Shown here piece by piece: positions 912 through 63,917 of a stretch of DNA of 64,000 nt; position 1 is the first letter of the stretch; every line of letters starts with the position of its first letter. The notes under the pieces were generated by a model that did no database searches, had not been told where the DNA came from, and was given only the letters and a program-made list of their open reading frames with translations. The translations under genes were made by a program, and so were the position numbers. The stretch is from IMG/VR virus record IMGVR_UViG_3300043788_000114, positions 1 through 64,000 of that record; one strand, given 5' to 3'. The stretch comes from a virus.

Positions 912-1809
912 TCAATCGAGATTACCATCGATATTTGGCTGCATATGTCGTGACGAACACTGTCTGATCCCTCGCGGAAAATGCCACTGCGGTTGCGGAA
1001 AAGATACGCCGATAGCGAAAAAGACAAGAAAAGAACGCGGTGATGTTAGGGGATACCCGCATAAATATATTCTTGGCCACACGAGAAATGTTGGACACCG
1101 CCCCTTTCTTCCAGCAGGCATGTGCGTGTGTCGCGATCCAAATTGCACAATACCATTTGGTTTTTGCCACTGCGGATGTGGTCAGAAAACAAATATTGCG
1201 CCAAATTCTGATACGAAATCTTATTGGATTAAGGGTTTGCCAATTCCATTTCTTCTTGGTCACCATCGTAGGGAAATTCCAATTGCTGAAGATGCCGCGC
1301 CATTCAAAATCAACGGCTTCTATTGTAGATTGATTCCACTAACGCAGGGATTGCATGTAATCATTTGGGAGGCAGACTACAAATACTTAATGCACTGGAA
1401 GTGGTTTGCTGTTTGGGATGAGAATGCAAGATCGTTCTATGCTGGACGCCAAATAAGGGAGAAAAAAGGGAAACAATACACGCAATACATGCATCGGCAG
1501 CTTCTTGGTCTTGGAAAAGGCGATAAGCGACTAGGAGATCACGCAAACGGCAACACCCTAGACTGCCGCAGAGACAATCTTCGCTATGCAGGCTACGACG
1601 GCAACGCTCGTAATAGGAAAAAGCAACGCAACAATACGTCTGGTTTTAAGGGAGTTTCGCTAGATAGAGATACGGGGTTATATTCAGCAAATATAAGGGT
1701 CAACGGGGTATTGATTTATCTCGGGAGAAGGGGTTCTGCGCGCTTAGCTCACGAACTATATTGCTTTGCATCCAAATCGCTCCATGGAGAATTTTCTCGT
1801 GTACAGTGA
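901..1809 (+). CDS. HNH homing endonuclease with C-terminal AP2 domain and N-terminal CHCGCG repeats
   Basis: DHANGNTLDCRRDNLR HNH motif; NNTSGFKGVS...YSANIRVNG..IYLG AP2 motif; two CHCGCG repeats; SD AGGAGG before ATG 901. Confidence 0.9.
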   Translation: MTPLQSRLPSIFGCICRDEHCLIPRGKCHCGCGKDTPIAKKTRKERGDVRGYPHKYILGHTRNVGHRPFLPAGMCVCRDPNCTIPFGFCHCGCGQKTNIAPNSDTKSYWIKGLPIPFLLGHHRREIPIAEDAAPFKINGFYCRLIPLTQGLHVIIWEADYKYLMHWKWFAVWDENARSFYAGRQIREKKGKQYTQYMHRQLLGLGKGDKRLGDHANGNTLDCRRDNLRYAGYDGNARNRKKQRNNTSGFKGVSLDRDTGLYSANIRVNGVLIYLGRRGSARLAHELYCFASKSLHGEFSRVQ

Positions 1810-3958
1810 GCGCATCGCATTGCAAAACTTAAACTACTTCGCATCCTCTGAAGGATGGATGCCGGTTTACCACACCTTCGACGAGATCAGGAACTTCACA
1901 GCCTACATCAATAAAATCGTCAAGCCGATGGAGTCCAACTCCAAAAGCACCTACTACGGTCTCGTCGAGCCGATCACTGAAAAGCGCAGACAAGAAATAT
2001 ACCGCTGGATCGAGAACGAGCAAATTCTTTGCGGCCTCGATTATGGATATTGGCGTGACAATTACGCCTACGTCGTGAACGAAGGTGGACAGGTCGTAAA
2101 GTTCAAGAACAGGCGCTCGCAGGATGTGTTCGACTCCGTTGTCGCGATGCTAGAAGAGCAGGAGGCGGGCATACAGATACTCACGCTGAAGGCTCGTCAG
2201 GTGGGCATCACTACGCTGGTCGCTTTGATGTTTATTCACAGGATGCTTTTCGTCCCGAACACGCTCGCCGTCATGGCCTCGGTGCAAAAAGAGAAGTCGG
2301 AAGAGATCGAAGTTAAGCTCAACACGGCTTACGAAATGTGTCCTTTCTGGCTGAAGCCAATGAGAGAGCCGAAGAGGAGCTTTTCGAACGGATCGCGCCT
2401 CAACATCGAATCTGGAATGCAACCGAAGGGAATTGCGCAGGGAAAAACGCCAACGCTAATTCACATTTCCGAGATCGGGCTGATCCCGAATCCGCACAAT
2501 GTGATCGAAGAAGGACTTCTCCCGGCCACGCACTCGAACAAAAACCTGTTCATGGTATTCGAAGGAACCGGCTCCGGCAACGTTGGATGGTTCCCAGACT
2601 TCTGGCGCTCGCAGAAGAGAGACTGGCCGCTCGGGCTCGCCAGAATGTGCCCGGTATTCATTTCGTGGCCGCTCGCAACCGATCTGTACCCTCAAGCAGA
2701 CTGGCTAAGACAGCATCCTGTTCCAGCGGGATTCTACGAAAAGAGGACCGAGGCAACCAAGGCTCACATTTCTCGGTGCGAATCGTATATCCGCAACACT
2801 CCTTACCTTTCGAAAGTCGTCGGATCAAGCTACCGCGTGCCTATCGAGCAACAATGGTTCTGGGAATTTGAGTGGCGTCAAGCAAAGGAAAGACATTCCC
2901 TGTTCCAGCACGCCGCGCGGCTCCCGGCAGACGATTTTGAGGCTCTCACGGGAGAACACGATAGCGTCTTTGATCAAGAAAAAATCATGGAGATCGAGGA
3001 CCACATTTACGAAATCAAAACAGATGGGTCCAAGTCGCGGCGGAAACCGGTGCAGGCTTACGCAATCACTGGTCACTCGATTGACGAGGAGTTCGAGCCG
3101 GAGGATTCGCAGATCGATCCTTATGAAGAGGTGATCCACCTGATCTGGAGATCGCATCGTGGCGAGCGTTACGATTGGGAATTAGTTCCGCTCCGTCCGT
3201 TCGACGAGGAAAATGAGAATGAGACTCTGGACAAACTTCTGGTCTTCGAGCCGCCGAAAAAAGGAGAACTCTACAGTTGCGGTGTGGACACGGCGCACGG
3301 CCTCGGCAAAGAGGATGAAGATCGTTTTTGCGCATCGATGACGCGCGTTTCAAGTGGATCAGGCTCCGACGTTCAATCCTGTGAACTCACTTCAAATCGC
3401 TTCTCCCCAGCGCAGGCCGTTCCGTTCCTTGCCGCAATAGCAACGTGGTACGGACAGGGATCAGGGCACTATCGCGGCGTCAAATTCTCCATCGAACAGG
3501 TTGAAGGCCCCGGCGACACGTGCCAGAACCAATTAAAGATTATGGGTTTTTCATGGCACCACACTCCGGGAAGGCTCGATGGCAAGAAGATCAAAGACGA
3601 AAACCGGCACCGTGAAGGTTGGTACTCTAACAAAACGACCGTGCCGATTCTCATGGACCGTTTCGTTGAGGCTGTGAATGGCGGCTGGTACGTTCCTCAG
3701 TCCAAATGGCTGATCGAGGAATTGAAGACGCTCGAACGTCACACGGTGGACGGTGGCAGGGACAAGATGGTTCACCAGAAAAGTAAACACGACGACAGAG
3801 TGCGTGGCGCTGCGCAGAGCTATTTGAATATGCACACCTACGACGATCTTGCAATGCGCAGTCAAAGGCGCTACGCTGTCCCACATAAGAAAAAGCATGA
3901 CCCCAACGAAGGCGTTTGCATGGCGAACGCTTTCTCTGTGGGCGACTGGAACGAATGA
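1799..3958 (+). CDS. terL: Terminase large subunit
   Basis: Walker A-like LKARQVGITT, Walker B-like LIHISE, coupling motif EGTG, RNase H acidic residues GVDTA and HDDRV; GTG start after GGAG. Confidence 0.9.
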   Translation: MYSERIALQNLNYFASSEGWMPVYHTFDEIRNFTAYINKIVKPMESNSKSTYYGLVEPITEKRRQEIYRWIENEQILCGLDYGYWRDNYAYVVNEGGQVVKFKNRRSQDVFDSVVAMLEEQEAGIQILTLKARQVGITTLVALMFIHRMLFVPNTLAVMASVQKEKSEEIEVKLNTAYEMCPFWLKPMREPKRSFSNGSRLNIESGMQPKGIAQGKTPTLIHISEIGLIPNPHNVIEEGLLPATHSNKNLFMVFEGTGSGNVGWFPDFWRSQKRDWPLGLARMCPVFISWPLATDLYPQADWLRQHPVPAGFYEKRTEATKAHISRCESYIRNTPYLSKVVGSSYRVPIEQQWFWEFEWRQAKERHSLFQHAARLPADDFEALTGEHDSVFDQEKIMEIEDHIYEIKTDGSKSRRKPVQAYAITGHSIDEEFEPEDSQIDPYEEVIHLIWRSHRGERYDWELVPLRPFDEENENETLDKLLVFEPPKKGELYSCGVDTAHGLGKEDEDRFCASMTRVSSGSGSDVQSCELTSNRFSPAQAVPFLAAIATWYGQGSGHYRGVKFSIEQVEGPGDTCQNQLKIMGFSWHHTPGRLDGKKIKDENRHREGWYSNKTTVPILMDRFVEAVNGGWYVPQSKWLIEELKTLERHTVDGGRDKMVHQKSKHDDRVRGAAQSYLNMHTYDDLAMRSQRRYAVPHKKKHDPNEGVCMANAFSVGDWNE

Positions 3959-7164: not shown

Positions 7165-7530
7165 GTGGACGCCATCGATCAGTTGCTCTACATGCCTGCA
7201 TCGTTCGTTTGCGACAAGTGCAACTTTCATTTGGAAAAGGCAACTCTCTTCGCGGCCTCCGGGGAGATCGGTATTCCAGTGGAAGGCTATGAGCCGGAAC
7301 CGTGCCCCAACGATGGAGAGCTTCTCCGTCACGTGACATGGAAAGAGGCGTATGAAAACACGATCAAGCACAGCAACGAAATGATGCTGGCTTTGATCGA
7401 ATCGGTGAAACTTCAGAGCCACTACGCGGCGCAACTCAATGCATACGACGAGGGTAGAAGAAGAGAGTTTTCGTGCCCAGCGGAGTGGATTCAAAGGCTG
7501 ATCGACACGGGCGTGATTGAGTCCCGTTAA
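7165..7530 (+). CDS. Hypothetical Zn-ribbon protein
   Basis: CDKC...CPND motif. Confidence 0.55.
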   Translation: MDAIDQLLYMPASFVCDKCNFHLEKATLFAASGEIGIPVEGYEPEPCPNDGELLRHVTWKEAYENTIKHSNEMMLALIESVKLQSHYAAQLNAYDEGRRREFSCPAEWIQRLIDTGVIESR

Positions 7531-7558
7531 TCGGGTAGCAAAATATCTTAAAAATTGC

Positions 7559-7588
7559 TTGACAATGTAGTGCGCAATGCACTACGTT
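7559..7588 (+). promoter_or_regulatory. Sigma70-like promoter with palindromic operator
   Basis: TTGACA 7559-7564, TACGTT 7583-7588; inverted repeat GTAGTGC-N5-GCACTAC 7567-7585; ATG a few nt downstream (possibly leaderless). Confidence 0.65.
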
Positions 7589-7593
7589 TAGCC

Positions 7594-7761
7594 ATGGAAC
7601 GAAGCCCTACAAGTTTCCGCTTATCGACTGTGGCTTTGGAGTTGATTGTCAAACTCTCAAAGGCGCTTGGAGTTTCCCAGACCTCTATCGTGGAGATGGC
7701 GATTCGGGAACTGGCCAAGCGGAACAAGATAAAACTCAGTGGCAAGGAAAGCTCTGTCTAG
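7594..7761 (+). CDS. Ribbon-helix-helix (CopG/Arc-like) regulator
   Basis: TSFRLS beta strand followed by two helices (LSKALGVSQTSIVEMAIRELA). Confidence 0.8.
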   Translation: MERSPTSFRLSTVALELIVKLSKALGVSQTSIVEMAIRELAKRNKIKLSGKESSV

Positions 7762-7835
7762 GCTTGATGGGGAGTGGTGTGCCTGTGCATGACGAGATGC
7801 GGTGCTCCGGGGTTTGGCGTGGTTGGGCGAGGTAC
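7741..7835 (+). repeat. 5-nt periodic GG(Y)NN array, unit 0 (19 pentamers), candidate guide RNA
   Basis: ggcaa ggaaa gctct gtcta ggctt gatgg ggagt ggtgt ... ggttt ggcgt ggttg ggcga ggtac; 17/19 start with G and 17/19 have a pyrimidine at position 3. Confidence 0.85.
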
Positions 7836-7863
7836 TAAAAAATTCAAAAACGAGGTGAATGAT

Positions 7864-8484
7864 ATGGCTTCCAAAGCAACCGCTTTGAGCAATGTGTCTA
7901 ATGATGCGAAATTAGACATCGAGATTCAAACCCCCTTCATGATCGAAGCCTCAATTGAGGGCACAGCACCAATTCTTTTTCACAGATGGAGTTGTGAGGC
8001 TGTTGCAGAAAAAGCTGCCAGCAAAAAGGGCAGCGCGGCGAAGAAGAGCGACAATATCGAGAGCTACATGTACAAGACTGACAAAGGCGAGATTGCGATT
8101 CCTTCCGAGTATTTCCGCCAGTCGATCATCCACGCCGCGAAGTTCAAGCAGGACCCGCGCAGCCCGCGCAAAAGTGCGATGGACCTCTTCAAGGCAGGCG
8201 TTTGCACTATCGGTGAATTGTGTTCGCTAGGCGCGAAGGAACCAGACTATCTTGATCAGCGCCGCGTTGTGATTCAGCGCAACGGGATCACGAGAGTCCG
8301 TCCAGCGATGCTTGCTGGTTGGAAATGTAGTGTCAGCCTGCAAGTTCTTCTGCCAGAATACATCGATCACCAGATGTTGCACGAAACGCTCTCCTACGCA
8401 GGAAGGATCGTTGGTGTTGGGGATTTTCGGCCTTCATTCGGCAGGTTTGCAGTCACCGCCTTCAATGTGATCGCACTGAAGTAA
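7864..8484 (+). CDS. Stand-alone RAMP/Cas7-like protein (Vipr-like)
   Basis: N-terminal strand IEGTAPILFH, IAIPSEYFRQSI resembling Cas7-group IPGSSxKG, C-terminal G-loop AGRIVGVGDFRPSFGRFAV; SD GAGGTG. Confidence 0.75.
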   Translation: MASKATALSNVSNDAKLDIEIQTPFMIEASIEGTAPILFHRWSCEAVAEKAASKKGSAAKKSDNIESYMYKTDKGEIAIPSEYFRQSIIHAAKFKQDPRSPRKSAMDLFKAGVCTIGELCSLGAKEPDYLDQRRVVIQRNGITRVRPAMLAGWKCSVSLQVLLPEYIDHQMLHETLSYAGRIVGVGDFRPSFGRFAVTAFNVIALK

Positions 8485-8835
8485 GTTCTGGCACACCATT
8501 CTCGGGCGAGTTAAGGTCTGATGGGGCGGGGCGAGATTGGGTCGGTCATGGTTTTGCGTGGAGTGGTTGTGTCTGGATTGGTCTGGTCCGGGCCTTCAGG
8601 CCGGTTTGGTTTGCTAGGGATTGGTCAGGATAGTTGAGCACGGGTGATGTGGGTCCGGGCGAGACTAGGACTGGTAATCCACGGACTGGCGCGGATCGGC
8701 AGGGTTGGTCGAGAAATGGTCTGGCAGGGAACGGGCCAAAAGGCCGGTATGGTTTGGTGAGCTACCGCGTGGAAGTGTTGGGACAGGCGTGGCCCGGTCC
8801 GGCTGGCTGAGGTTTGGTAGTGTGAGATGTGGAAA
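8485..8835 (+). ncRNA. Three GG(Y)NN pentamer tracts (21, 26, 18 units) separated by GGGCC-NNNA-GGCC hairpins; candidate guide array
   Basis: In-phase tracts 8485-8589, 8603-8732, 8746-8835; 13-nt separators at 8590-8602 and 8733-8745. Confidence 0.85.
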
Positions 8836-8837
8836 AT

Positions 8838-8869
8838 AGATGGCGGACTCCGGTCCGCCATTTGTTTTT
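8838..8869 (+). terminator. Intrinsic terminator closing the array
   Basis: AGATGGCGGAC-TCCG-GTCCGCCATTT followed by GTTTTT. Confidence 0.8.
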
Positions 8870-8905
8870 GGGTAGACAGTTCAATCCCTTTGCCATAAGA
8901 TTCAC

Positions 8906-11068
8906 TTGAGTTGCACGACGGACTGGTTGGGAGCCAGTTCGAACCGGGAGAGAACGAAGGGTTGGTTGCCGGACTCTACAGAGACGATTCGTTGGCAAGT
9001 CCCAAACTGGGAGTCCTCCGCAAGCGTCAAGGTCGCTTGGGTTGAGGAGCAGATCGCCGAAGGTGAAGGATACCTTTCCGGCCAAGCGTGCTACCGCGAT
9101 CTGAACAAGAATCTACGTGTTTTCGATGGAATCTTCAAAGATAAAACCAAATCCTCACTGCTCACTAATCAGCTAAAATACAACGTTCGTAAATTCTGCG
9201 AAACGTTGGCCGAAGTCCGTGAGATCGCCGGATTTTCGAGTGACGTTCCATCCTACAAAAAGATGGCCGAGATGCTTACAAAGGTGAGCAAGGCCGTCTA
9301 TCTGGAATCCAATTTTCCGTACCAAATTCTCAAGGTTCTCCAATACGCCACGGTGATGGGAATCGGATACTTATGGCCGAAAGTCAGAACATCGGAATAC
9401 GGTTCCGGACCGCGCGAGATGGTGTTCGACGCTCTTGGCCTGCTCGACGTGGTTCCTGTTCAAATTCCTGCGCGGAGCAACGATGTGCAGGACGCTTACG
9501 CCGTCACGATCTACGACTATATGCCCATCGCGGAGGCGAGTGCTCGCTTCCCACTTTTTTATGGCCAACTCCAGACGGTCGGAAGAAACAACTACAAATC
9601 TCTTATCCAAGCTCAGCGTCAGGATTTCAATGCGACGTGGCGCTACGGACAGATCGGCGAAACACAGAGCAGGAGTTTCGGAAACCTGTACACGGAAATC
9701 CGCTACACGTTTATTCGCGACATGCGCGTGAACACGACGGGCTTAGAAATGAAGTGCGGTGATCCGGGAACCACATGGTTCTACAAGGTTCCTTACATCG
9801 GTCAGGAAATATTCGGCGGCATGAGAAACGGCAAGCCATATATGCGCCCCGCCATGGTCGAAGACTGCCGGATTTATCCAAATCTGCGATTGATCATCAC
9901 ATCTTCCGGGCTCGACAAGCCGATGTACGATGGCACATCTTTCGAGTGGGACCCAAAGATTCCGATTATCCAGTACACGGTAGATGATTGGTCTTGGGAA
10001 GCTCTTGGAAGATCGCTTGTTGGCGATGTGGCTTCCATCGAAACTACGATTCGCAAGCACGAGAGGAAAATCGATCAGGTAATCACCGCGCGCCTGAATC
10101 CGCCAATGGGTTACGATCTCGATACTAACGGCGGACAAAAGGTTGAACACTTCGACATTTTCGAAGAAGATGTGCGCCTCGGTCTGGCTGGAGGAGAGCC
10201 AAAAAAGAGTTTCCAGTCGCTCCTGCCTGACGAAGTTGCCGTAGGTCAAGACAATTGGACATTTTTGAAATATCTTGGAGAAAAAGAACTCGCCCAACTT
10301 GGCTTGAACGATGTAGGAAACCTCGCCAACATCAAGATGAATCTCGCCAACGACACGGCGGACAAGATGCTCGAATCTATTGGTCCAATCGCCAAGGGTA
10401 TCGCGATGAGGATCGAGAAAGCTAACAAACGTGTCGGCGAGAGAATGAAGTATCTGATCCCGCAATTCTTCGACGCCAACAGATTGGTCGAGTACGTCGG
10501 TCCGGATAACGTGGCGAAAGAGATGTTCGATTACGACCCGGACACACTCGTTCCGAGCCACTTGCCAGACGAGTTCATTGGTGGAAAGTATCCGGAGACT
10601 CCATCCAGATATGACCGGCTCACACGGGCGAAATTCTTCGTCAAGAAAATCCGCCTCGTCTCCGTTCCAAGCACGCTGTTGAAGATCACGCAGATGCAGG
10701 AGCAACTGAAGTTCCTCAACCTGAAGCGTGGTGGCGCTCCAATTTCGTGGGAGACGGTCTTCGAGAAGTTGGATATTGCTGATCCGAAGCGCGAGATCGA
10801 GAAGAATTTCAAGGAAGAAGTCGAGCTTCAGAAGATGAAGATTCTCGCTCAGATCGAGATCATGAAGATTTTGAAGAGCCTCGGTATTGATCCGTCGCAG
10901 CTTGGCGGAGGCGATGAAGGTGGGGGAGCTAAGCCAAAAGGCGGTGGTGGCGGCGGCGGTGCGCCGCACGCTGGGGGAAGGCCACCAAGTGGGCAGTCCG
11001 GGCCACGTGTGAAGCAAAAGGGCGCAGCCGGTGGTGCTCCTAGAACACTAATTTCGGAGAGCGGATGA
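8906..11068 (+). CDS. Portal protein (P22-like); true start possibly TTG 8966
   Basis: ~700 aa, between TerL and scaffold/MCP; helical C-terminus and Gly-rich tail. Confidence 0.8.
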   Translation: MSCTTDWLGASSNRERTKGWLPDSTETIRWQVPNWESSASVKVAWVEEQIAEGEGYLSGQACYRDLNKNLRVFDGIFKDKTKSSLLTNQLKYNVRKFCETLAEVREIAGFSSDVPSYKKMAEMLTKVSKAVYLESNFPYQILKVLQYATVMGIGYLWPKVRTSEYGSGPREMVFDALGLLDVVPVQIPARSNDVQDAYAVTIYDYMPIAEASARFPLFYGQLQTVGRNNYKSLIQAQRQDFNATWRYGQIGETQSRSFGNLYTEIRYTFIRDMRVNTTGLEMKCGDPGTTWFYKVPYIGQEIFGGMRNGKPYMRPAMVEDCRIYPNLRLIITSSGLDKPMYDGTSFEWDPKIPIIQYTVDDWSWEALGRSLVGDVASIETTIRKHERKIDQVITARLNPPMGYDLDTNGGQKVEHFDIFEEDVRLGLAGGEPKKSFQSLLPDEVAVGQDNWTFLKYLGEKELAQLGLNDVGNLANIKMNLANDTADKMLESIGPIAKGIAMRIEKANKRVGERMKYLIPQFFDANRLVEYVGPDNVAKEMFDYDPDTLVPSHLPDEFIGGKYPETPSRYDRLTRAKFFVKKIRLVSVPSTLLKITQMQEQLKFLNLKRGGAPISWETVFEKLDIADPKREIEKNFKEEVELQKMKILAQIEIMKILKSLGIDPSQLGGGDEGGGAKPKGGGGGGGAPHAGGRPPSGQSGPRVKQKGAAGGAPRTLISESG

Positions 11069-11865
11069 GGAAGGTATACATCTACGTTTTGAAACATCCG
11101 GAGACGTTTGAGATTCGTTACGTCGGGTTGACTCGTGCGCCACAGCGACGGTTGAACAACGAGATCAACTATCCCCATACAAAACACCTAGCGAATTGGA
11201 TGAACAGCCTTAAGATACTAAAGTTGAAACCCCTCATGGAGATCATAGAGGAATCGGTAGAAGGGGCTGCGGACGAAGCAGAACGACGCTGGATTGCAAA
11301 TTTTAGATCAAAAGGATGTCGACTGATCAATTACACAAGCGGCGGTGAAAATGGTTTCACGATGAGTGAAGAATTACGGGCCAAATTCCGCATACTCAAT
11401 AGCAGGAAGCGTCGCCCAATGTCCGATGAGCACAGGGCAAAGATTTCAGACTCCCTTAAAGGGAGAGAGTTGACACCGGGTAATGGAAAGTATTTTTCTG
11501 CGCTTAACATCAAGCGTAAGGGAATCCCCCTAAGAGAAGAGACGAAGGCGAAATTGAGAGAAATTGGTAGAGCGCAACTCAACGGCAAGTGGTTCGAGCG
11601 GTTCATAGAAGGGTGCCGGAATCGCAAACGCCCCTCAAAGTTCACTGACGAACAAAAGTCAGAAATCAAGTTCCTGATCTCAGAAGGGTACTCGCAAAAA
11701 ATTATTGCCGAAACATTTGGGATATGCATTGGCACCGTTTCGGATGCGAAGAGGGGGAAAATCTGGGCAAAAATAATACCAGCCACTTCCGCATCTATCG
11801 TTCCAGAATTTAAGAGTGTGCCACTCGTAAGAAACGAAAAAGGTCAGTACGAAAGAGCGGCATAG
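11065..11865 (+). CDS. GIY-YIG homing endonuclease with NUMOD3-like motifs and C-terminal HTH
   Basis: YIYVL...IRYVGLT...RRL...AERRWI...LIN; MSDEHRAKISDSLKGR. Confidence 0.85.
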   Translation: MRKVYIYVLKHPETFEIRYVGLTRAPQRRLNNEINYPHTKHLANWMNSLKILKLKPLMEIIEESVEGAADEAERRWIANFRSKGCRLINYTSGGENGFTMSEELRAKFRILNSRKRRPMSDEHRAKISDSLKGRELTPGNGKYFSALNIKRKGIPLREETKAKLREIGRAQLNGKWFERFIEGCRNRKRPSKFTDEQKSEIKFLISEGYSQKIIAETFGICIGTVSDAKRGKIWAKIIPATSASIVPEFKSVPLVRNEKGQYERAA

Positions 11866-50157: not shown

Positions 50158-50379
50158 ATGCTGATTCAAATTCTGGACGAGCTTTGGTTGGACATCTGGA
50201 GCGTCACCGCGATCAAGAAGATCGACGAAAAATCCTGCACGCTCTGGGTAACCGGCCAAGGCGCGATGGATGGCCTCGTACTGGACTACCCGGCAGAAGA
50301 AGTCGCGCAGGCAATCAACGACGAGCGAGAAAAAGGCGACGAGGAGCCGGAGCCTGAGGACGAAGAGCCAGAAGAATGA
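50158..50379 (+). CDS. Hypothetical acidic protein
   Basis: 73-aa ORF. Confidence 0.6.
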   Translation: MLIQILDELWLDIWSVTAIKKIDEKSCTLWVTGQGAMDGLVLDYPAEEVAQAINDEREKGDEEPEPEDEEPEE

Positions 50380-51293
50380 CATCCCCTGAACTTTTGACAC
50401 ACTTTGAGCACTGCCGATTAGACGGCTGGTGGAGCAGGAATTGGGAACTTCGGAAACTTCAGCCTAATGAGATGTTGCAAGAAGGTCTGAAAGTTGGCCT
50501 CACCTCCAGCCGGTCCGATTTTGGCCAACATGCCGGTGAGCACTGCTATACCCTCGGTGCCGATCCCGGACTCGAATCCAAAGAATACGATTTACACGCT
50601 CAAACGGTCCACATCGCTGCTCTGGCGGACGTGATTTCTCATGCCGTGCGCCGCGCCACAGAGCCGCCATGGAGCGTAGCGGAGCCGGTTAGGCTAGGAG
50701 ATGGCCCATACTGGCATCCAGCGGCCTTCCTAAGCCCTACTGGCGATTTTCTGAGACGCGTGGTGCTAGTTACCGCATGGAACGACGACCGGCATTACCA
50801 CGAGGCGAGGAGCTTCTTTTCACTCGGCGAAGTGTGCGTCTACGGTCTCCCTCTACAAGAGGCCGTAATCGTTTTGGGGGCCAGCAGAGATGGCAAACGC
50901 CACGGCCCACTCTCAAAAGGAATCCTCCACCCCAGAAGCAAGCAACTGCGCTTCCGAAAAAAGAACGACGTGAAGGTGCCATTCAAGGACTCTTGGGTCC
51001 CGATCTGGAGAGAGGATCGCGACGAAATCAGCACGCATGATTGGCTTCAGGCGATGCACGATGACGGAATTTTGGCCGACCATTGTTTCAGTGTGACCGT
51101 TCCAGTTCCAGAGCGGCAGGCGAGGCAGAAGATCGTCGATCTTATCGGAAGGAAACTCGATACTTTGATGGAAATGAGGGAGCAACCGGAAGGTTGTCTT
51201 TCAGTCTGCGACTGGCCCCCCTGCGCACATCGAGGGCACTGTCATTCCGGGAACCAGCCGAGTGGAAAGTATGGGTTCGTGCAGATCGGTTAA
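50376..51293 (+). CDS. Cas4/AddB-like PD-(D/E)xK-fold protein, catalytic motif unclear
   Basis: N-terminal SP..L..F.HC and C-terminal C..VC...PC.....C pattern. Confidence 0.5.
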   Translation: MTSPELLTHFEHCRLDGWWSRNWELRKLQPNEMLQEGLKVGLTSSRSDFGQHAGEHCYTLGADPGLESKEYDLHAQTVHIAALADVISHAVRRATEPPWSVAEPVRLGDGPYWHPAAFLSPTGDFLRRVVLVTAWNDDRHYHEARSFFSLGEVCVYGLPLQEAVIVLGASRDGKRHGPLSKGILHPRSKQLRFRKKNDVKVPFKDSWVPIWREDRDEISTHDWLQAMHDDGILADHCFSVTVPVPERQARQKIVDLIGRKLDTLMEMREQPEGCLSVCDWPPCAHRGHCHSGNQPSGKYGFVQIG

Positions 51294-60624: not shown

Positions 60625-60709
60625 GCGAGAGTGGCGAAATGGCAGCACGCAGCGGTCTTAAAAACCGTTGGAGAAATCCGTGGGGGTTCAAGTCCCCTCT
60701 CTCGCACCA
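60625..60709 (+). tRNA. tRNA-Leu(TAA)
   Basis: GCGAGAG/CTCTCGC acceptor, CT-TAA-AA loop, CCA. Confidence 0.9.
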
Positions 60710-60710
60710 T

Positions 60711-60785
60711 GAGCCTGTACCCAAGTGCTAAGGGAGCGGTCTGCAAAACCGTGATGCGGTGGTTGGATTCCACTCAGGCTCTCCA
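60711..60785 (+). tRNA. tRNA-Cys(GCA)
   Basis: GAGCCTG/CAGGCTC, CT-GCA-AA, discriminator T, CCA. Confidence 0.85.
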
Positions 60786-60796
60786 AGTTTAAATGT

Positions 60797-60886
60797 GGCC
60801 CCGCTGGCGGATTGGCCCAGCCACTAGTCTTAGGAACTAGCGTCCTTAGCCGGACACTGTGGGTTCGAATCCCACCGGGGCTACCA
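60797..60886 (+). tRNA. tRNA-Leu(TAG)
   Basis: CTAGT-CT-TAG-GA-ACTAG, GTTCGAATC, CCA. Confidence 0.9.
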
Positions 60887-60893
60887 AAGTTTT

Positions 60894-60980
60894 GCCGATG
60901 TGCTGGAATTGGAAGACGGACTGCACTCAAAACGCAGCGCGAGCAATCGCATGGGAGTTCGATCCTCCCCATCGGCACCA
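60894..60980 (+). tRNA. tRNA-Leu(CAA)
   Basis: GCCGATG/CATCGGC, CT-CAA-AA, CCA. Confidence 0.9.
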
Positions 60981-61031
60981 GATTAAGGCCGTATTAGGCG
61001 ACGAACTAAATTTAGTCGTGCGGCTAATTTT

Positions 61032-61119
61032 GGAGAGTCAACCGTTGAGGCTGACGGCGCGGTTTGCTAAACCGATGGTTCCCTTTGGGAATGGGCATCG
61101 TGCGCTCGGCTCTCCGCCA
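61032..61119 (+). tRNA. tRNA-Ser(GCT)
   Basis: GGAGAGT/GCTCTCC, TT-GCT-AA, long variable arm, GCCA; atypical T-loop. Confidence 0.8.
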
Positions 61120-61141
61120 TGTTTGTGCAGTAAACGTGTTT

Positions 61142-61229
61142 GGGGAGTAAACCTGTCGGGCGACAGGGCTCGTCTGGAAAGCGATGCGGACCCATCGGGT
61201 TTGCGTTTCGAGTACGCTGCTCCCCGCCA
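61142..61229 (+). tRNA. tRNA-Ser(GGA)
   Basis: CT-GGA-AA, long variable arm, GCCA. Confidence 0.85.
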
Positions 61230-61230
61230 C

Positions 61231-61318
61231 GGAAGCGTTGGGCATTTGGCAGGCCCACCCCGCTCGAAACGGGACACACCGCAAGGTGTTGGGGATTCGA
61301 CTTCCTCCGCTTCCGCCA
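61231..61318 (+). tRNA. tRNA-Ser(CGA)
   Basis: GGAAGCG/CGCTTCC, CT-CGA-AA, GCCA. Confidence 0.85.
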
Positions 61319-61324
61319 CTGTTT

Positions 61325-61414
61325 GGATACGTTAGGCATGTGCCAAGCCTACCCCGTTTGAAGCGGGACGCTCCTGAAAGGGACTTGGGTGTTGGACTCA
61401 CCCCGTATCCGCCA
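61325..61414 (+). tRNA. tRNA-Ser(TGA)
   Basis: GGATACG/CGTATCC, TT-TGA-AG, GCCA. Confidence 0.8.
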
Positions 61415-61419
61415 GATGT

Positions 61420-61506
61420 GCAGCGTATGACCGGGCGCACGGTCACCGCTCTGTAAAAGCGGCGCTCATTCGAGCATGGGGAGTTGAAGCCTCTCACGCT
61501 GCACCA
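61420..61506 (+). tRNA. tRNA-Tyr(GTA)
   Basis: GCAGCGT/ACGCTGC, CCGCT-CT-GTA-AA-AGCGG, ACCA. Confidence 0.8.
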
Positions 61507-61510
61507 GAGA

Positions 61511-61585
61511 TGTATAATTGGGGTGTCAGGTGCGTGAACACCCGGCTTACGCCAACCGGAAATGAGGTTTCCGATGACACCCCAA
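61511..61585 (+). promoter_or_regulatory. -10 box plus structured leader sequestering SD and ATG of the HNH gene
   Basis: TATAAT 61513-61518; TTGGGGTGTCA pairs with TGACACCCCAA; GAGGT inside the GGAAAT/GTTTCC hairpin. Confidence 0.7.
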
Positions 61586-62404
61586 GAGCAAAGTGTACCA
61601 GCGCCAACGAAGTGGTGCCAGAAGCATCTACACGAAATCTCAATATCTACGAAAAGATGCCAAGAATGCCGGAAGGCGTATTTTCGGAAATACAGAACGC
61701 TTAACAGAGAGCACCTAAATTCTCTTGATCGAGAACGGTATCGAAAAAAACACGAAGGCCAACTTCGAAAGTATAATGGCTCTCCGGGCGGTATCGCCAG
61801 AGCGACCAAATCACGTCGCGAGGCTCTCGATAAGTATTACTCCAATCCAAAGATTTGCAAAAATTGCGGAGGCCCAATAGTCGTCAAGGATGGCGAGAAG
61901 ATTCCGCAAGCAAGGAAGCGAACCTTTTGCACACGGCGGTGCGCTGCCATTTTTAACAATCATTTACGGAAAAAAGAACGAGCGTGCAAGACCTGCGGGG
62001 GAGCAGTACGCAGAACAAGCAAGAGAATGCGTAACTACTGCGACGACTGCTTAAATGTGAAACTCCTTGCGATTACTGGAAAAATATCGAAACGTGCGTT
62101 ATTTACACGGAGAAATGGGTACCAATCGGCACGGTCGCAAATCCGAAGACACGCAGAGACGGTGTTCAATCGCTCCGGAAAGAAGAAGGTCTGTGCCATT
62201 TGCGGGTATAGCCTGTACGTTGAAATCGCTCATTTGCGAGCGGTGGCCGATTTTTCTGAGGACGCGCTCATTGAAGAGATCAACGCGGTAGGTAACTTAA
62301 TAGCCTTTTGCGCCAATCATCATTGGGAATTTGACAACGATAAACTTGTCGAGGATAATGTAACGGCGGAGTGGACTGGAGATGGTTCCAGCTTGGTCTC
62401 ATAA
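61574..62404 (+). CDS. HNH homing endonuclease within the tRNA array
   Basis: CAICGY...EIAH...N...NL...CANHHWEFD; several CxxC modules. Confidence 0.85.
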   Translation: MTPQEQSVPAPTKWCQKHLHEISISTKRCQECRKAYFRKYRTLNREHLNSLDRERYRKKHEGQLRKYNGSPGGIARATKSRREALDKYYSNPKICKNCGGPIVVKDGEKIPQARKRTFCTRRCAAIFNNHLRKKERACKTCGGAVRRTSKRMRNYCDDCLNVKLLAITGKISKRALFTRRNGYQSARSQIRRHAETVFNRSGKKKVCAICGYSLYVEIAHLRAVADFSEDALIEEINAVGNLIAFCANHHWEFDNDKLVEDNVTAEWTGDGSSLVS

Positions 62405-62442
62405 GCCAAATCACGGCGGTTCGATTCCGCTCTCCGCAACCA
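62365..62442 (+). tRNA. tRNA-Met(CAT), initiator-like 1:72 mismatch
   Basis: TTGGT-CT-CAT-AA-GCCAA, GTTCGATTC, ACCA. Confidence 0.85.
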
Positions 62443-62497
62443 TTTCATTGGAGGTTCCCATGACAGATCACTAGCGAAAGGTTGGTGAGAAACTGTC

Positions 62498-62710
62498 ATG
62501 GGAAACGCCCACGCGTGGCGTCACCGGACTGGACGTGGTACTCCCTGTCCTACCGGTTGTCTCTATTGCAAGATGCGTCCCAAGGAAGGCGAACCGGGAG
62601 AGCGGCACAAGAACTACGCCAACAAAAACTCTCGCGGTCGTCGCACTCCACGGGGCAAGCAGAACAACAAGAAGCGCAAGAGTCCAAAGCTCAAACTAGG
62701 AGTCCAATGA
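62498..62710 (+). CDS. Small basic protein
   Basis: 70 aa, CPTGCLYC, Arg/Lys-rich. Confidence 0.45.
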   Translation: MGNAHAWRHRTGRGTPCPTGCLYCKMRPKEGEPGERHKNYANKNSRGRRTPRGKQNNKKRKSPKLKLGVQ

Positions 62711-62759
62711 TCTTCGATCCAGAATTCGGATGGTGGAGGAGTTGGATCAGTATCGATCT

Positions 62760-63232
62760 TGGCGCGTAAGCGCTGAGTGGAGGCCGGGGGCCGCAAGGCA
62801 CTGGGTCCGTTCTCGGACGTAAACCGAGTGGTGGAGGCGGCGGCAACGCCGCCCCTAGTTTTCGAGTACGCATGTAGAAGGTGATGGAGTTTGATTTCGG
62901 ACGTGGGTTCAACTCCCACCGGCTCCACCAAGAAGCACTTGAACGAGAAGCGCCGACTTACGATCATGAACACAACGTCTCTGTTTTCGGCTAACTCAAA
63001 AAAGCGAAGCTCGTTGGCTGTCGCTCAATGGTTCGAGTGTTTCTTTGTGGGGCCGTCACGGTTTCGACGGAATTAGAGGACATCACGCAGTTCATGCCGG
63101 ATGCTGTGGCCCACGAAACGGGACAACAGAAAACTAGGTGCAGAACCATTTGCACTGCCAATGGCTGCTTAAACACCAGTCATTCGAGGGTGGCCGCAAT
63201 ACTCGTCAAAGAACCATGCGGCAACAAATTCT
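62760..63232 (+). ncRNA. ssrA: Circularly permuted two-piece tmRNA; outer ends approximate
   Basis: 3' acceptor piece ends CGGCTCCACCA at 62930; 5' piece starts GGGGCCG at 63049 (G3.U70); tag AEPFALPMAA* at 63140-63172. Confidence 0.9.
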
Positions 63233-63393
63233 ATGCCCGAGAATCGGAGAAAAAAGCAGCGGAGAAGGAAAGTCCTGCGACAAATCGAGCGGCGCAGGCA
63301 GTTCCAGCGAGTCAATGAAATCCTGTTGCGCTCCGCTTTCGGGGTAGAATGGAAAAAGTACCGCCAGCGTGGAATCGCGGTGCCGTAAGTTTC

Positions 63394-63469
63394 GGGGTCG
63401 TAGCTTAATTGGAAAAGCGCTTCCTTGTCACGGAAGAAGTCGAGGGTTCAACTCCCTTCGATCCCGCCA
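63394..63469 (+). tRNA. tRNA-Asp(GTC)
   Basis: CTTCC-TT-GTC-AC-GGAAG, GCCA. Confidence 0.9.
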
Positions 63470-63483
63470 AGTTTGGAGATGAC

Positions 63484-63648
63484 ATGTCCAAGAGATGGAG
63501 AAAGCGCCAAGCGAGGATGGCAGCGACAGCCGCCGCGCAGCCTGCTGTTACGGAGCAACCTGCGGCGCAACAGACAGCACCTCCGCCCGCTGCCCAGCCT
63601 GAACGCGTACAGAAGATTCCTACGTGGCCATGGCGTGCGGTAGGGTAG
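63484..63648 (+). CDS. Small hypothetical protein
   Basis: SD GGAG; MSKRWRKRQARM... Confidence 0.5.
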   Translation: MSKRWRKRQARMAATAAAQPAVTEQPAAQQTAPPPAAQPERVQKIPTWPWRAVG

Positions 63649-63660
63649 AGAAAAGTTTTC

Positions 63661-63735
63661 GTCCCTGTCTGCTAGAGGCGAGGCATCCGCGTTCTCATCG
63701 CGGCAACATCGGTTCGAATCCGATCAGGGACGCCA
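63661..63735 (+). tRNA. tRNA-Glu(CTC)
   Basis: GTCCCTG/CAGGGAC, TT-CTC-AT, GCCA. Confidence 0.9.
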
Positions 63736-63739
63736 AGTT

Positions 63740-63834
63740 GCGCGGCGGCGAGACAGCCGTCAGTATTTGCGTCGAGTACATCTGAGCTACCCGCTATGGA
63801 GGTAGACGCAAGTCGATCATCTGACTAGCCGCGC
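63740..63834 (+). ncRNA. Unidentified structured RNA
   Basis: Nested stems GCGCGGC/GCCGCGC, GTCAG/CTGAC, TTGCGTC/GACGCAA, CTACC/GGTAG. Confidence 0.45.
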
Positions 63835-63843
63835 TTCGTTTAT

Positions 63844-63917
63844 GGGGTCGTCTTCTAACGGTAGGAAAGCTGATTTTCGCTCAGCTAATGCCGGTTCAAC
63901 TCCGGTCGGCCCTTCCA
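63844..63917 (+). tRNA. tRNA-Glu(TTC)
   Basis: GCTGA-TT-TTC-GC-TCAGC, GTTCAACTC, CCA. Confidence 0.8.

Follow-up and report, generated by a model that had tools for sequence, protein, structure and literature searches.

The question raised by the locus described here is how an RNA that carries several guides, all of them built from the same short unit, is divided into separate guides. The locus lies in a stretch of 64,000 nucleotides (the window), which comprises positions 1-64,000 of the 138.5-kb virus record IMGVR_UViG_3300043788_000114. An array of pentameric units is interrupted there by two small hairpins, which a preliminary description had likened to CRISPR repeats and read as sites of RNA processing or as filament caps, by which separate guides would be defined. 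The locus, at 7559-8869, is a phage operon of the VIPR (Viral Interference Programmable Repeat) type, and each hairpin, together with the constant units that flank it, is probably the boundary handle of a vrRNA, the guide RNA of such systems, and corresponds in minimal form to the 3' pseudoknot tail with which the Vipr filament of phage SUSP1 is capped.

VIPR systems were first described in preprints of 2026, among them a discovery paper (10.64898/2026.04.26.720920) and a structural paper (10.64898/2026.04.26.720927). According to the available text of these papers, Vipr protomers polymerise on a vrRNA of 9-16 GGYNN repeats; each repeat has its GGY buried and pairs with DNA through its NN, and one base of the target is passed over at every unit. 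In SUSP1, one vrRNA is encoded 5' of a group of genes that includes vipr, and three are encoded 3' of it (10.64898/2026.04.26.720920, available text). A SUSP1 vrRNA is made up of the repeat tract and an invariant structured 3' tail which caps the Vipr filament, and the residues that contact the GG in the cryo-electron microscopy structure are H17, R138, D177, W178 and R179 (10.64898/2026.04.26.720927, available text). Seven types are distinguished, and other architectures beside type II are staggered, ribozyme-interspersed and single-vrRNA (10.64898/2026.04.26.720920), and the experimental work, as far as the available text of the two papers goes, is mainly on the SUSP1 and P. fulva systems.

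Identity of the system

The 206-amino acid protein encoded 5' of the array matches PDB entry 36pp_D, “SUSP1 Vipr protein”, with an E-value of 1.2e-4 as a single sequence, and with an E-value of 3.3e-10 over residues 28-200 when a family profile of 22 homologues is used; its identity to SUSP1 Vipr is 36.5% over 74 residues. Residues H40, R146, D187, F188 and R189 align with the GG-contacting residues H17, R138, D177, W178 and R179 of SUSP1, and are invariant across the 22 homologues. The AlphaFold model of the protein (pLDDT 80.4) has type VII Cas7 and Csm3 as its top Foldseek matches (E 1.8e-07), and the sequence matches phrog_4652 (E 1.6e-17); a Pfam search of the protein returned no family. 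The locus is assigned to VIPR because of this homology, the conserved GG-contact residues and the RAMP fold, and every defining feature of VIPR that can be tested was found at it. By homology the protein is Vipr, and it would be expected to bind GGYNN repeats.

The operon would run in the order promoter, ribbon-helix-helix (RHH) accessory gene, vipr, co-transcribed array of three vrRNAs, and terminator (Table 1). A consensus scan found no promoter-like site inside 8486-8835, so the three pentamer tracts of the array, which are called guide tracts A, B and C, are probably carried on one transcript. The locus is a variant of the published VIPR design and not a new kind of system.

Hairpins and pentamer tracts

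The array (8505-8835) is strongly periodic: the autocorrelation of G is 0.34 at a lag of 5, 0.30 at a lag of 10 and 0.30 at a lag of 15, and the segment 8481-8771 has the highest 5-nt periodicity of the whole window. In-phase units have G at the first position in 87% of cases, G at the second in 67% and a pyrimidine at the third in 81%, followed by two positions of near-uniform composition. Of the 61 units in tracts A-C, 40 have the canonical GG and 21 do not. The units that lack it (GTTAA, GATTG and TCCAC are examples) mostly retain G at position 1, both in 8505-8835 and in the arrays of relatives, and they pair with the target at positions 4-5 in guide-target alignments; they thus seem to be functional. 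A caller that insists on GG would split such arrays, a point that is relevant both to the calling of vrRNAs and to their design.

The array is interrupted at two places by a hairpin with a GGCC/GGCC stem and a tetraloop. Direct reading confirmed the sequences that had been quoted for these places (8589-8613 and 8732-8756), and with them two further particulars of the preliminary description, namely that both hairpins shift the pentamer phase by the same 13 nt and that both are followed by nearly identical first pentamers. The last in-phase units before the hairpins are GGTCC at 8585-8589 (hairpin a) and GGAAC at 8728-8732 (hairpin b), the next units begin at 8603 (GGTTT) and 8746 (GGTAT), and the insertion between them consists in each case of one G and the 12-nt hairpin; the pentamers directly 3' are GGTTT GGTTT after hairpin a and GGTAT GGTTT after hairpin b. 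The tracts delimited in this way are 85, 130 and 90 nt long (17, 26 and 18 units), which agrees with the separate guides of about 90-130 nt that had been proposed. The hairpins and their surroundings form a 40-nt direct repeat (8574-8613 and 8717-8756) with 73% identity, and the motif CGGGCCNNNNGGCCGGT occurs exactly twice in the 64 kb, in both cases at a hairpin, compared to 0.13 copies expected by chance; at least two copies were reached in none of 100 shuffles.

Hairpin b has a local minimum free energy of -10 kcal/mol when an extra closing C-G pair is counted, and its folding energy (z -2.05) was equalled by 5 of 200 shuffles. The corresponding values for hairpin a are z -0.08 and 87 of 200 shuffles, and the minimum free energy structure of that region adopts another register. 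Since folding energy is uninformative here, the case that the hairpins are not due to chance rests on the relatives and not on thermodynamics.

A decayed third hairpin at about 8797-8815 (GGCCC GGTCC GGCTG GCTGA) is a faint possibility suggested by repeat D1 and a three-row alignment: the flanks and the module alignment are shared, but the arms cannot pair, and the candidate falls within the target match of guide C. A 12-nt inverted repeat with 92% complementarity (7772-7783 and 8490-8501) flanks vipr, linking a guide-like tract upstream of that gene (tract U) with the beginning of the array 3' of it, and may have arisen by chance.

Conservation and covariation of the hairpin

The comparison set consisted of 80 viral loci, out of 353 that matched, together with 21 metagenomic loci, and the hairpin class that was searched for may be written “GGNNC g [GG..loop..CC] GGYNN”. 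Besides the window, 16 of the 80 viral loci contain this class, and every instance is on the vipr strand, within the array 3' of that gene. All 11 of the close metagenomic relatives (74-88% Vipr identity) which retain sequence downstream of vipr carry one or two hairpins; L098 repeats L009, L100 is cut inside vipr and has no downstream array, and L102-L110 (45-61% identity) stand outside this count. With a covariance model built from 29 hairpin instances (R1), class members score 33-47 bits and no other sequence scores above 26 bits; a search of 82 sources with this model found nothing beyond the training set, the 30 matches of at least 33 bits including duplicates of L058 and the next match scoring 26 bits.

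The 34 distinct hairpins use 11 stem sequences (GGCC in 19, GGACTC in 4, GGTCA in 2, GGTC in 2 and seven others once each), with stems of 4-6 bp in this set; a stem of 7 bp occurs in L037. Their loops are mostly stable tetraloops: GAAA in 18, GCAA in 4, GTAA, TTCG, TTTT and TTA in 2 each, and four others once each. In an alignment of 29 rows (A2), which keeps L063 although it is misaligned by one column, 24 cells are changed on both sides of the stem compared to 8.2 in shuffles, with none of 500 shuffles as high, but these numbers are inflated by the choice of the rows for pairing. Shifting the partner column abolishes the pairing, and the bases that flank the stem (C, G before it and G, G after it) are invariant in 29 of 29 rows. 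Because A2 was picked for pairing, a selection-free test is the fairer one: among 150 distinct CGGG...CCGG stretches, 41 have at least two further Watson-Crick pairs, compared to 7.9 expected. The absence of the hairpins from homologous arrays had been named in the preliminary description as evidence that would tell against separators; the hairpin is instead conserved, and covarying, in the relatives.

The compensatory changes bear directly on the possibility that the hairpins are not RNA features at all, but chance palindromes (GGCC/CCGG), transcription attenuators or DNA recombination sites. The weakness of the individual folding energies would be in keeping with such an origin, and the hairpin with its flanks, of which 22 nt are identical between L008 and L009, could serve as microhomology for the exchange of guide cassettes. 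Compensation over 11 stem sequences, however, argues for RNA pairing and against a fixed DNA site, all instances lie on the transcribed strand, and the motif is present twice in the window where 0.13 copies are expected. Since the stem is followed by GGYNN and not by a T-run, the internal hairpin is also not an intrinsic terminator. A non-RNA explanation is accordingly regarded as exceedingly improbable.

On a quick Vipr tree the hairpin is present in 4 of 4 rows of the window's clade, in 13 of 14 rows of a second clade (about 60% identity) and in one further locus, a distribution that requires 4 changes compared to 16.2 in shuffles. In the nearest hairpin-less sisters (L011/L012, L013 and L014) there is one tract, and a terminator alone follows it. 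When the arrays of phages with 83-90% identical Vipr proteins are compared by blastn, essentially only the hairpin with its flanks, one common guide piece and the terminator are aligned, and the longest stretch of identity between related arrays is the 22-nt hairpin and flanks shared by L008 and L009. In the same two arrays, one guide fragment precedes the terminator in L008 but a GAAA hairpin in L009, an interchange which fits the idea of exchangeable 3' end structures.

Two explanations that give the hairpin a role in cleavage are best weighed against these observations. The first is that it is a pure cleavage signal, cut by a host endoribonuclease or by Vipr acting like the RAMP nuclease Cas6, with no later role in the ribonucleoprotein. 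RNase III would need a much longer stem than one of 4 bp, Pfam and PHROG searches found no second RAMP or nuclease gene in the operon, and the replacement of the hairpin by a terminator at the array end, like the swap between the L008 terminator and the GNRA hairpin of L009, is easier to reconcile with an end structure than with a site that is cut for its sequence. The invariant flanks of the stem (29 of 29 rows of A2) are nevertheless what would be expected of a recognition site, and the tracts seem to be co-transcribed behind vipr, so that at least the first guide needs to be released from the mRNA. Cleavage between guides also has a precedent in the hammerhead ribozymes of other VIPR types (10.64898/2026.04.26.720920, available text), although the available text of the two VIPR papers (10.64898/2026.04.26.720920 and 10.64898/2026.04.26.720927) reports no cleavage activity of Vipr. 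On balance, a signal for cleavage and nothing more is unlikely.

The second explanation is that the hairpin and its constant GG units form a portable boundary of guide cassettes, which would serve at the RNA level as the point of maturation cleavage, by Vipr or a host RNase, and at the DNA level as a microhomology of 20-odd conserved bases for the swapping, duplication and loss of guides. This dual role is quite unlikely; if it were true, no living system would model more closely than these VIPR arrays with their hairpins how a viral pentamer guide could have led to the palindromic repeat-spacer layout of CRISPR arrays.

Guide-target matches and the behaviour of the boundary

A set of 355 pentamer tracts was scanned, using a spaced seed and the published code in which 1 nt is skipped per unit, against the DNA of the window phage and its relatives. 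The scan gave 360 seed matches, most of which correspond to the number expected by chance, and several of which extend far past the seed. From the window, units 3-13 of guide C match the portal gene of the closest relative, in the part that encodes the N terminus (L111:16899-16952, genome G001), at 20 of 22 informative bases, in frame and with the skipped base at the wobble position; none of 60 order-shuffled versions of the guide reached 20, the maximum being 19. No alignment to L111:16899-16952 could be made for the portal region of the window itself.

In the other direction, guides of relatives match the window. The tract L100:573-662 matches window positions 50277-50330 at 34 of 36 informative bases, L097:835-944 matches the same positions at 37 of 44, and L094:1766-1890, which extends from a hairpin to a terminator, matches 50853-50927 at 38 of 50 through units 1-23 of its 25. 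The L094 target is in frame with the open reading frame (ORF) 50376-51293, with the skipped base at the wobble position, whereas no such wobble alignment was found at 50277-50330 for the small + strand ORF there. The window phage thus looks like a target of the VIPR systems of its relatives. The L100 and L097 guides address the region of a small acidic ORF (about 50159-50379; matched stretch 50259-50330), and the target genes at about 50159-50379 and at 50376-51293 have no Pfam or PHROG family. Matches were also found among the relatives themselves: L097:1937-2071, which lies between two hairpins, matches L013 at 38 of 54 bases, concentrated in units 2-23 of 27; the last guide of L008 matches L010 over 10 consecutive exact units; and an L013 guide matches L094 at 41 of 58.

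These alignments show how a guide behaves at its ends. Continuation across a hairpin was evaluated by placing eight units from the far side on the adjacent target at shifts of -2 to +2, for the window (from guide B to guide C) and for both sides of the L097 guide, and, at shift 0 only, for L094 (6 of 16); the scores were 1-8 of 16, where chance gives 4, and no match was carried across a hairpin in the pairs examined. In 5 of 5 guide-target pairs the match stops 3-5 units short of the hairpin or terminator, and in 4 of 4 the first unit after a hairpin is incompletely matched. The units next to the hairpin are also the most canonical of the array: of the two nearest it on either side, 100% and 94% have GG, compared to 35-68% further off, and the last unit before the hairpin is GGTTC, GGAAC, GGTCC or GGTAC in 34 of 34 hairpins. 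Because matches do not continue across the hairpin and the canonical units next to it are unmatched, the hairpin and a few constant units constitute a non-targeting handle between independent guides, and the earlier proposal that the hairpins define separate guides is borne out by target matches which end there without being taken up by the neighbouring tract.

The inserted stem-loops vary among the relatives (stems of 4-7 bp, loops of 3-6 nt), and since the length of the insertion varies, register is not kept across the hairpin. This observation is relevant to a further explanation, according to which the array is never processed and the hairpins are insulating hinges in one long RNA that carries several Vipr filaments, with the register reset at each hinge. 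That the flanking tracts address unrelated targets in a register which is not conserved would fit such hinges, and the strict GG units on both sides could nucleate two filaments. A tethered RNA of this kind would, however, need several distant DNA targets simultaneously, and small-RNA sequencing of SUSP1, which has a comparable layout, gave four discrete transcripts of about 100 nt (10.64898/2026.04.26.720920, available text). An unprocessed, hinged array is therefore considered very unlikely.

Several other searches for targets gave negative results. No self-target in the 138.5-kb genome rose above the shuffled null, the exact 9-unit target patterns of guides B and C had 0 matches each in IMG/VR, the pattern of guide B with up to 3 mismatches was found in 0 of 5 records of relatives, and guides U, A and B and the solo tract S2 did not rise above their shuffled nulls in 582 kb of the relatives' DNA.

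Some further guide-like matches and tracts were observed. The first 9-10 units of L096:1841-1955 match the vipr coding sequence of L009, L091-L094, L098, L100 and L101, which recalls the vipr-targeting vrRNAs of SUSP1-family phages and is no more than suggestive, since about 0.1 exact 9-unit seeds would be expected by chance in this search. Two more GGYNN tracts, resembling solo vrRNAs, lie far from vipr in the phage genome (G000:C1 70095-70174 and 137130-137199). The tract at 137130-137199 is directly followed by a small hairpin with a CGAAAA loop, and the one at 70095-70174 matches a relative (genome G005, L123:15434) at 18 of 20, where the null maximum is 16.

Proposed mechanism and points against it

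The mechanism proposed for the boundary handle follows from the homology to SUSP1. Each Vipr protomer would bind one pentamer, hiding the GGY and presenting the NN, and the exposed pairs would read the DNA target with one base skipped per unit. The hairpin and its adjoining constant units, GGWWC-G 5' of the stem and GGYNN 3' of it, would close one guide and open the next: a short stem-loop presumably cannot be threaded through the cleft that holds the single strand in the filament, and filament growth would stop there, leaving the 3' end capped. The hairpin would probably also shield this end from 3'-5' trimming after a cut in the precursor, and the terminator hairpin would take the capping role for the last guide. 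Capping, protection of the 3' end and any cleavage at the hairpin are thus proposed steps. The suggestion of filament caps in the preliminary description gains support because the structured 3' tail of SUSP1 caps the Vipr filament (10.64898/2026.04.26.720927, available text), and its author, a model working from the letters of the sequence, in effect rediscovered the repeat-plus-tail logic of vrRNAs.

A number of observations weigh against the interpretation of the hairpin as a boundary handle. Both hairpins of the window are thermodynamically marginal, a competing fold is predicted for hairpin a, and the loops TTCA and AAAA deviate from the GNRA/UUCG majority; the covariation counts of A2 carry the inflation described above. 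The hairpin was not found in 64 of the 80 viral loci, some of which have long arrays, so Vipr proteins in general do not require it. The single-tract relatives manage without a hairpin, as does tract U (7761-7835), which has none at its 3' end. Among the guides of the window a candidate target is known for C alone, and it is moderately supported (20 of 22 compared to a null maximum of 19). The tracts between hairpins are long, with 26 units here and about 40-50 in relatives compared to 9-16 in SUSP1, and a long tract may hold more than one mature guide, or its ends may be set otherwise. Lastly, a search of sequencing runs for the locus found one DNA run (0.04 share of words) and no RNA run.

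Comparison with known systems

The closest known system is the type II VIPR of SUSP1. The two have in common a small RAMP protein with the same GG-contact residues, carriage by a phage, GGYNN tracts on both sides of vipr, an accessory gene for a small DNA-binding protein, a series of guides that follows the genes, a constant structured element after each tract, and targets in competing phages that are read with a skipped base, often the codon wobble position. They differ in the separator, which here is a stem-loop of 12-18 nt followed by the next tract and in SUSP1 is a tail of about 40 nt with a hairpin and a pseudoknot. No pseudoknot tail of the SUSP1 type was found, the 12 nt between the constant G and the next tract offering neither room nor a partner for it, and in sequence the hairpins do not resemble the tails of HY02, a SUSP1-like phage. 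The accessory gene is 5' of vipr here and 3' of it in SUSP1, a tract comprises 17-26 units here and as many as about 50 in relatives, compared to 9-16, and, unlike in SUSP1, about a third of the units lack the second G and yet pair with targets. In the available text of the VIPR literature the word “hairpin” occurs once, in the discovery paper's legend to the SUSP1 tail, and it does not occur in that of the structural paper or the competition paper (2026.10.15.759431); the supplements may show the present form.

Hammerhead-interspersed and staggered vrRNA arrays are other ways to separate the vrRNAs of one array, as the available text of the VIPR papers describes. The present array is unlike both, since its separator is too small for a ribozyme and its tracts do not overlap. 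A scan of the window with Rfam at the gathering threshold gave 9 matches, all of them to tRNA or tmRNA at 60.6-63.9 kb, with no hammerhead in 7500-8900. A different way of bounding a guide is seen in the isolated phage DSL-LC04 (L089, OR003939.1), whose Vipr is 56% identical and annotated as a helix-turn-helix regulator: its pentamer array (1160-1500) is 5' of vipr, and a stem of about 16 bp, formed over a long range, surrounds one of the tracts in place of small hairpins.

The likeness to CRISPR that had been pointed out holds for the layout and not for membership. As in class 1 CRISPR systems, where a 3' stem-loop bound by Cas6 ends the Cas7 filament, a constant palindromic element alternates with variable guides in one transcript, and as with CRISPR repeats, a hairpin would mark the end of a RAMP filament and is conserved among relatives while the guides turn over. 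The array is unlike CRISPR in that the constant element is 12-18 nt long with a variable stem sequence, the guide is a pentamer repeat read discontinuously, and the lengths vary widely. There are no identical repeats: Tandem Repeats Finder reported no array of CRISPR type, the 40-nt module being the only repeat on the scale of the array, and no cas1/cas2, Cas6, Cas5 or other cas families were found among 18 neighbouring proteins. The hairpins also resemble intrinsic terminators in having a GC-rich stem with a stable tetraloop, and a true terminator replaces the hairpin after the last guide; they are unlike terminators in that the stems have 4 bp and no T-run follows, and in that transcription must pass them in order to reach guides B and C.

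Features of the operon and its surroundings

The coordinates of the features are collected in Table 1. The sequence at 7559-7585 is probably, as judged from its composition of a TTGACA box and a palindrome, the promoter of the operon with an operator for the RHH protein, which would then be autoregulated. The same layout, with a different palindrome sequence, is found 5' of the homologous gene in L090, L091 and L100; a consensus promoter scan made no call at 7559-7585. The RHH protein, a candidate Vipr-accessory protein (vap), also matches Pfam RHH_1 with an E-value of 0.006, which is below the curated cut-off, and homologous coding sequences are present 5' of vipr in L008, L090, L091 and L100. 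Terminators homologous to that of the window end the arrays of L008, L010, L013 and L094; the terminator ends the array and would act as the 3' hairpin of guide C.

Table 1. Positions of the features in the window, with the evidence or structural detail recorded for each
Feature	Position	Strand	Details
TTGACA and perfect palindrome GTAGTGC-GCAAT-GCACTAC (probable promoter and operator)	7559-7564 and 7567-7585	+	Read from the sequence
RHH protein, 55 aa (candidate vap)	7594-7761	+	phrog_3887 transcriptional regulator, E 7.7e-07
Upstream guide-like tract U	7761-7835	+	15 in-phase pentamers (9 with GG), between vap and vipr
vipr gene, 206-aa RAMP (Cas7-like) protein	7864-8484	+	Match to PDB 36pp_D
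Guide tract A	8505-8590	+	17 in-phase pentamers (11 with GG); ends with the constant unit GGTCC and one G
Hairpin a, GGCC-TTCA-GGCC	8591-8602	+	Stem 8591-8594 with 8599-8602; 42.7 bits with covariance model R1
Guide tract B	8603-8733	+	26 pentamers in one phase (17 with GG); starts GGTTT GGTTT, ends GGAAC and G
Hairpin b, GGCC-AAAA-GGCC	8734-8745	+	Stem 8734-8737 with 8742-8745; 42.3 bits with covariance model R1
Guide tract C	8746-8835	+	18 pentamers (12 with GG)
Intrinsic terminator	8840-8869	+	9-bp stem 8840-8861, then TTGTTTTT; -21.4 kcal/mol, z -5.5
Terminase large subunit	1766-3955		
Portal gene	8906-11065		

The VIPR locus sits between the terminase region and the portal gene. The large terminase gene is directly preceded by a gene for an HNH endonuclease (820-1806), and the portal gene is directly followed by one for a homing endonuclease of the GIY-YIG/NUMOD3 kind (11065-11862). 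At 60625-63917 the phage carries a cluster of ten tRNA genes, of which one has an odd anticodon loop, together with a permuted tmRNA whose tag is AEPFALPMAA.

Significance

The Vipr protein of the window belongs to a large and distant branch, with 6828 proteins at E <= 0.001. If the hairpin is the boundary handle that the evidence suggests, then the guide boundary in this branch has shrunk to a few constant units around a tetraloop hairpin. It would offer a simple and mutable handle on what ends a Vipr filament, on how transcripts with several guides are divided, and on which units are read. Related environmental phages, moreover, look to be aiming their guides at each other's genes, which is the inter-phage warfare proposed for SUSP1, here in a different lineage.

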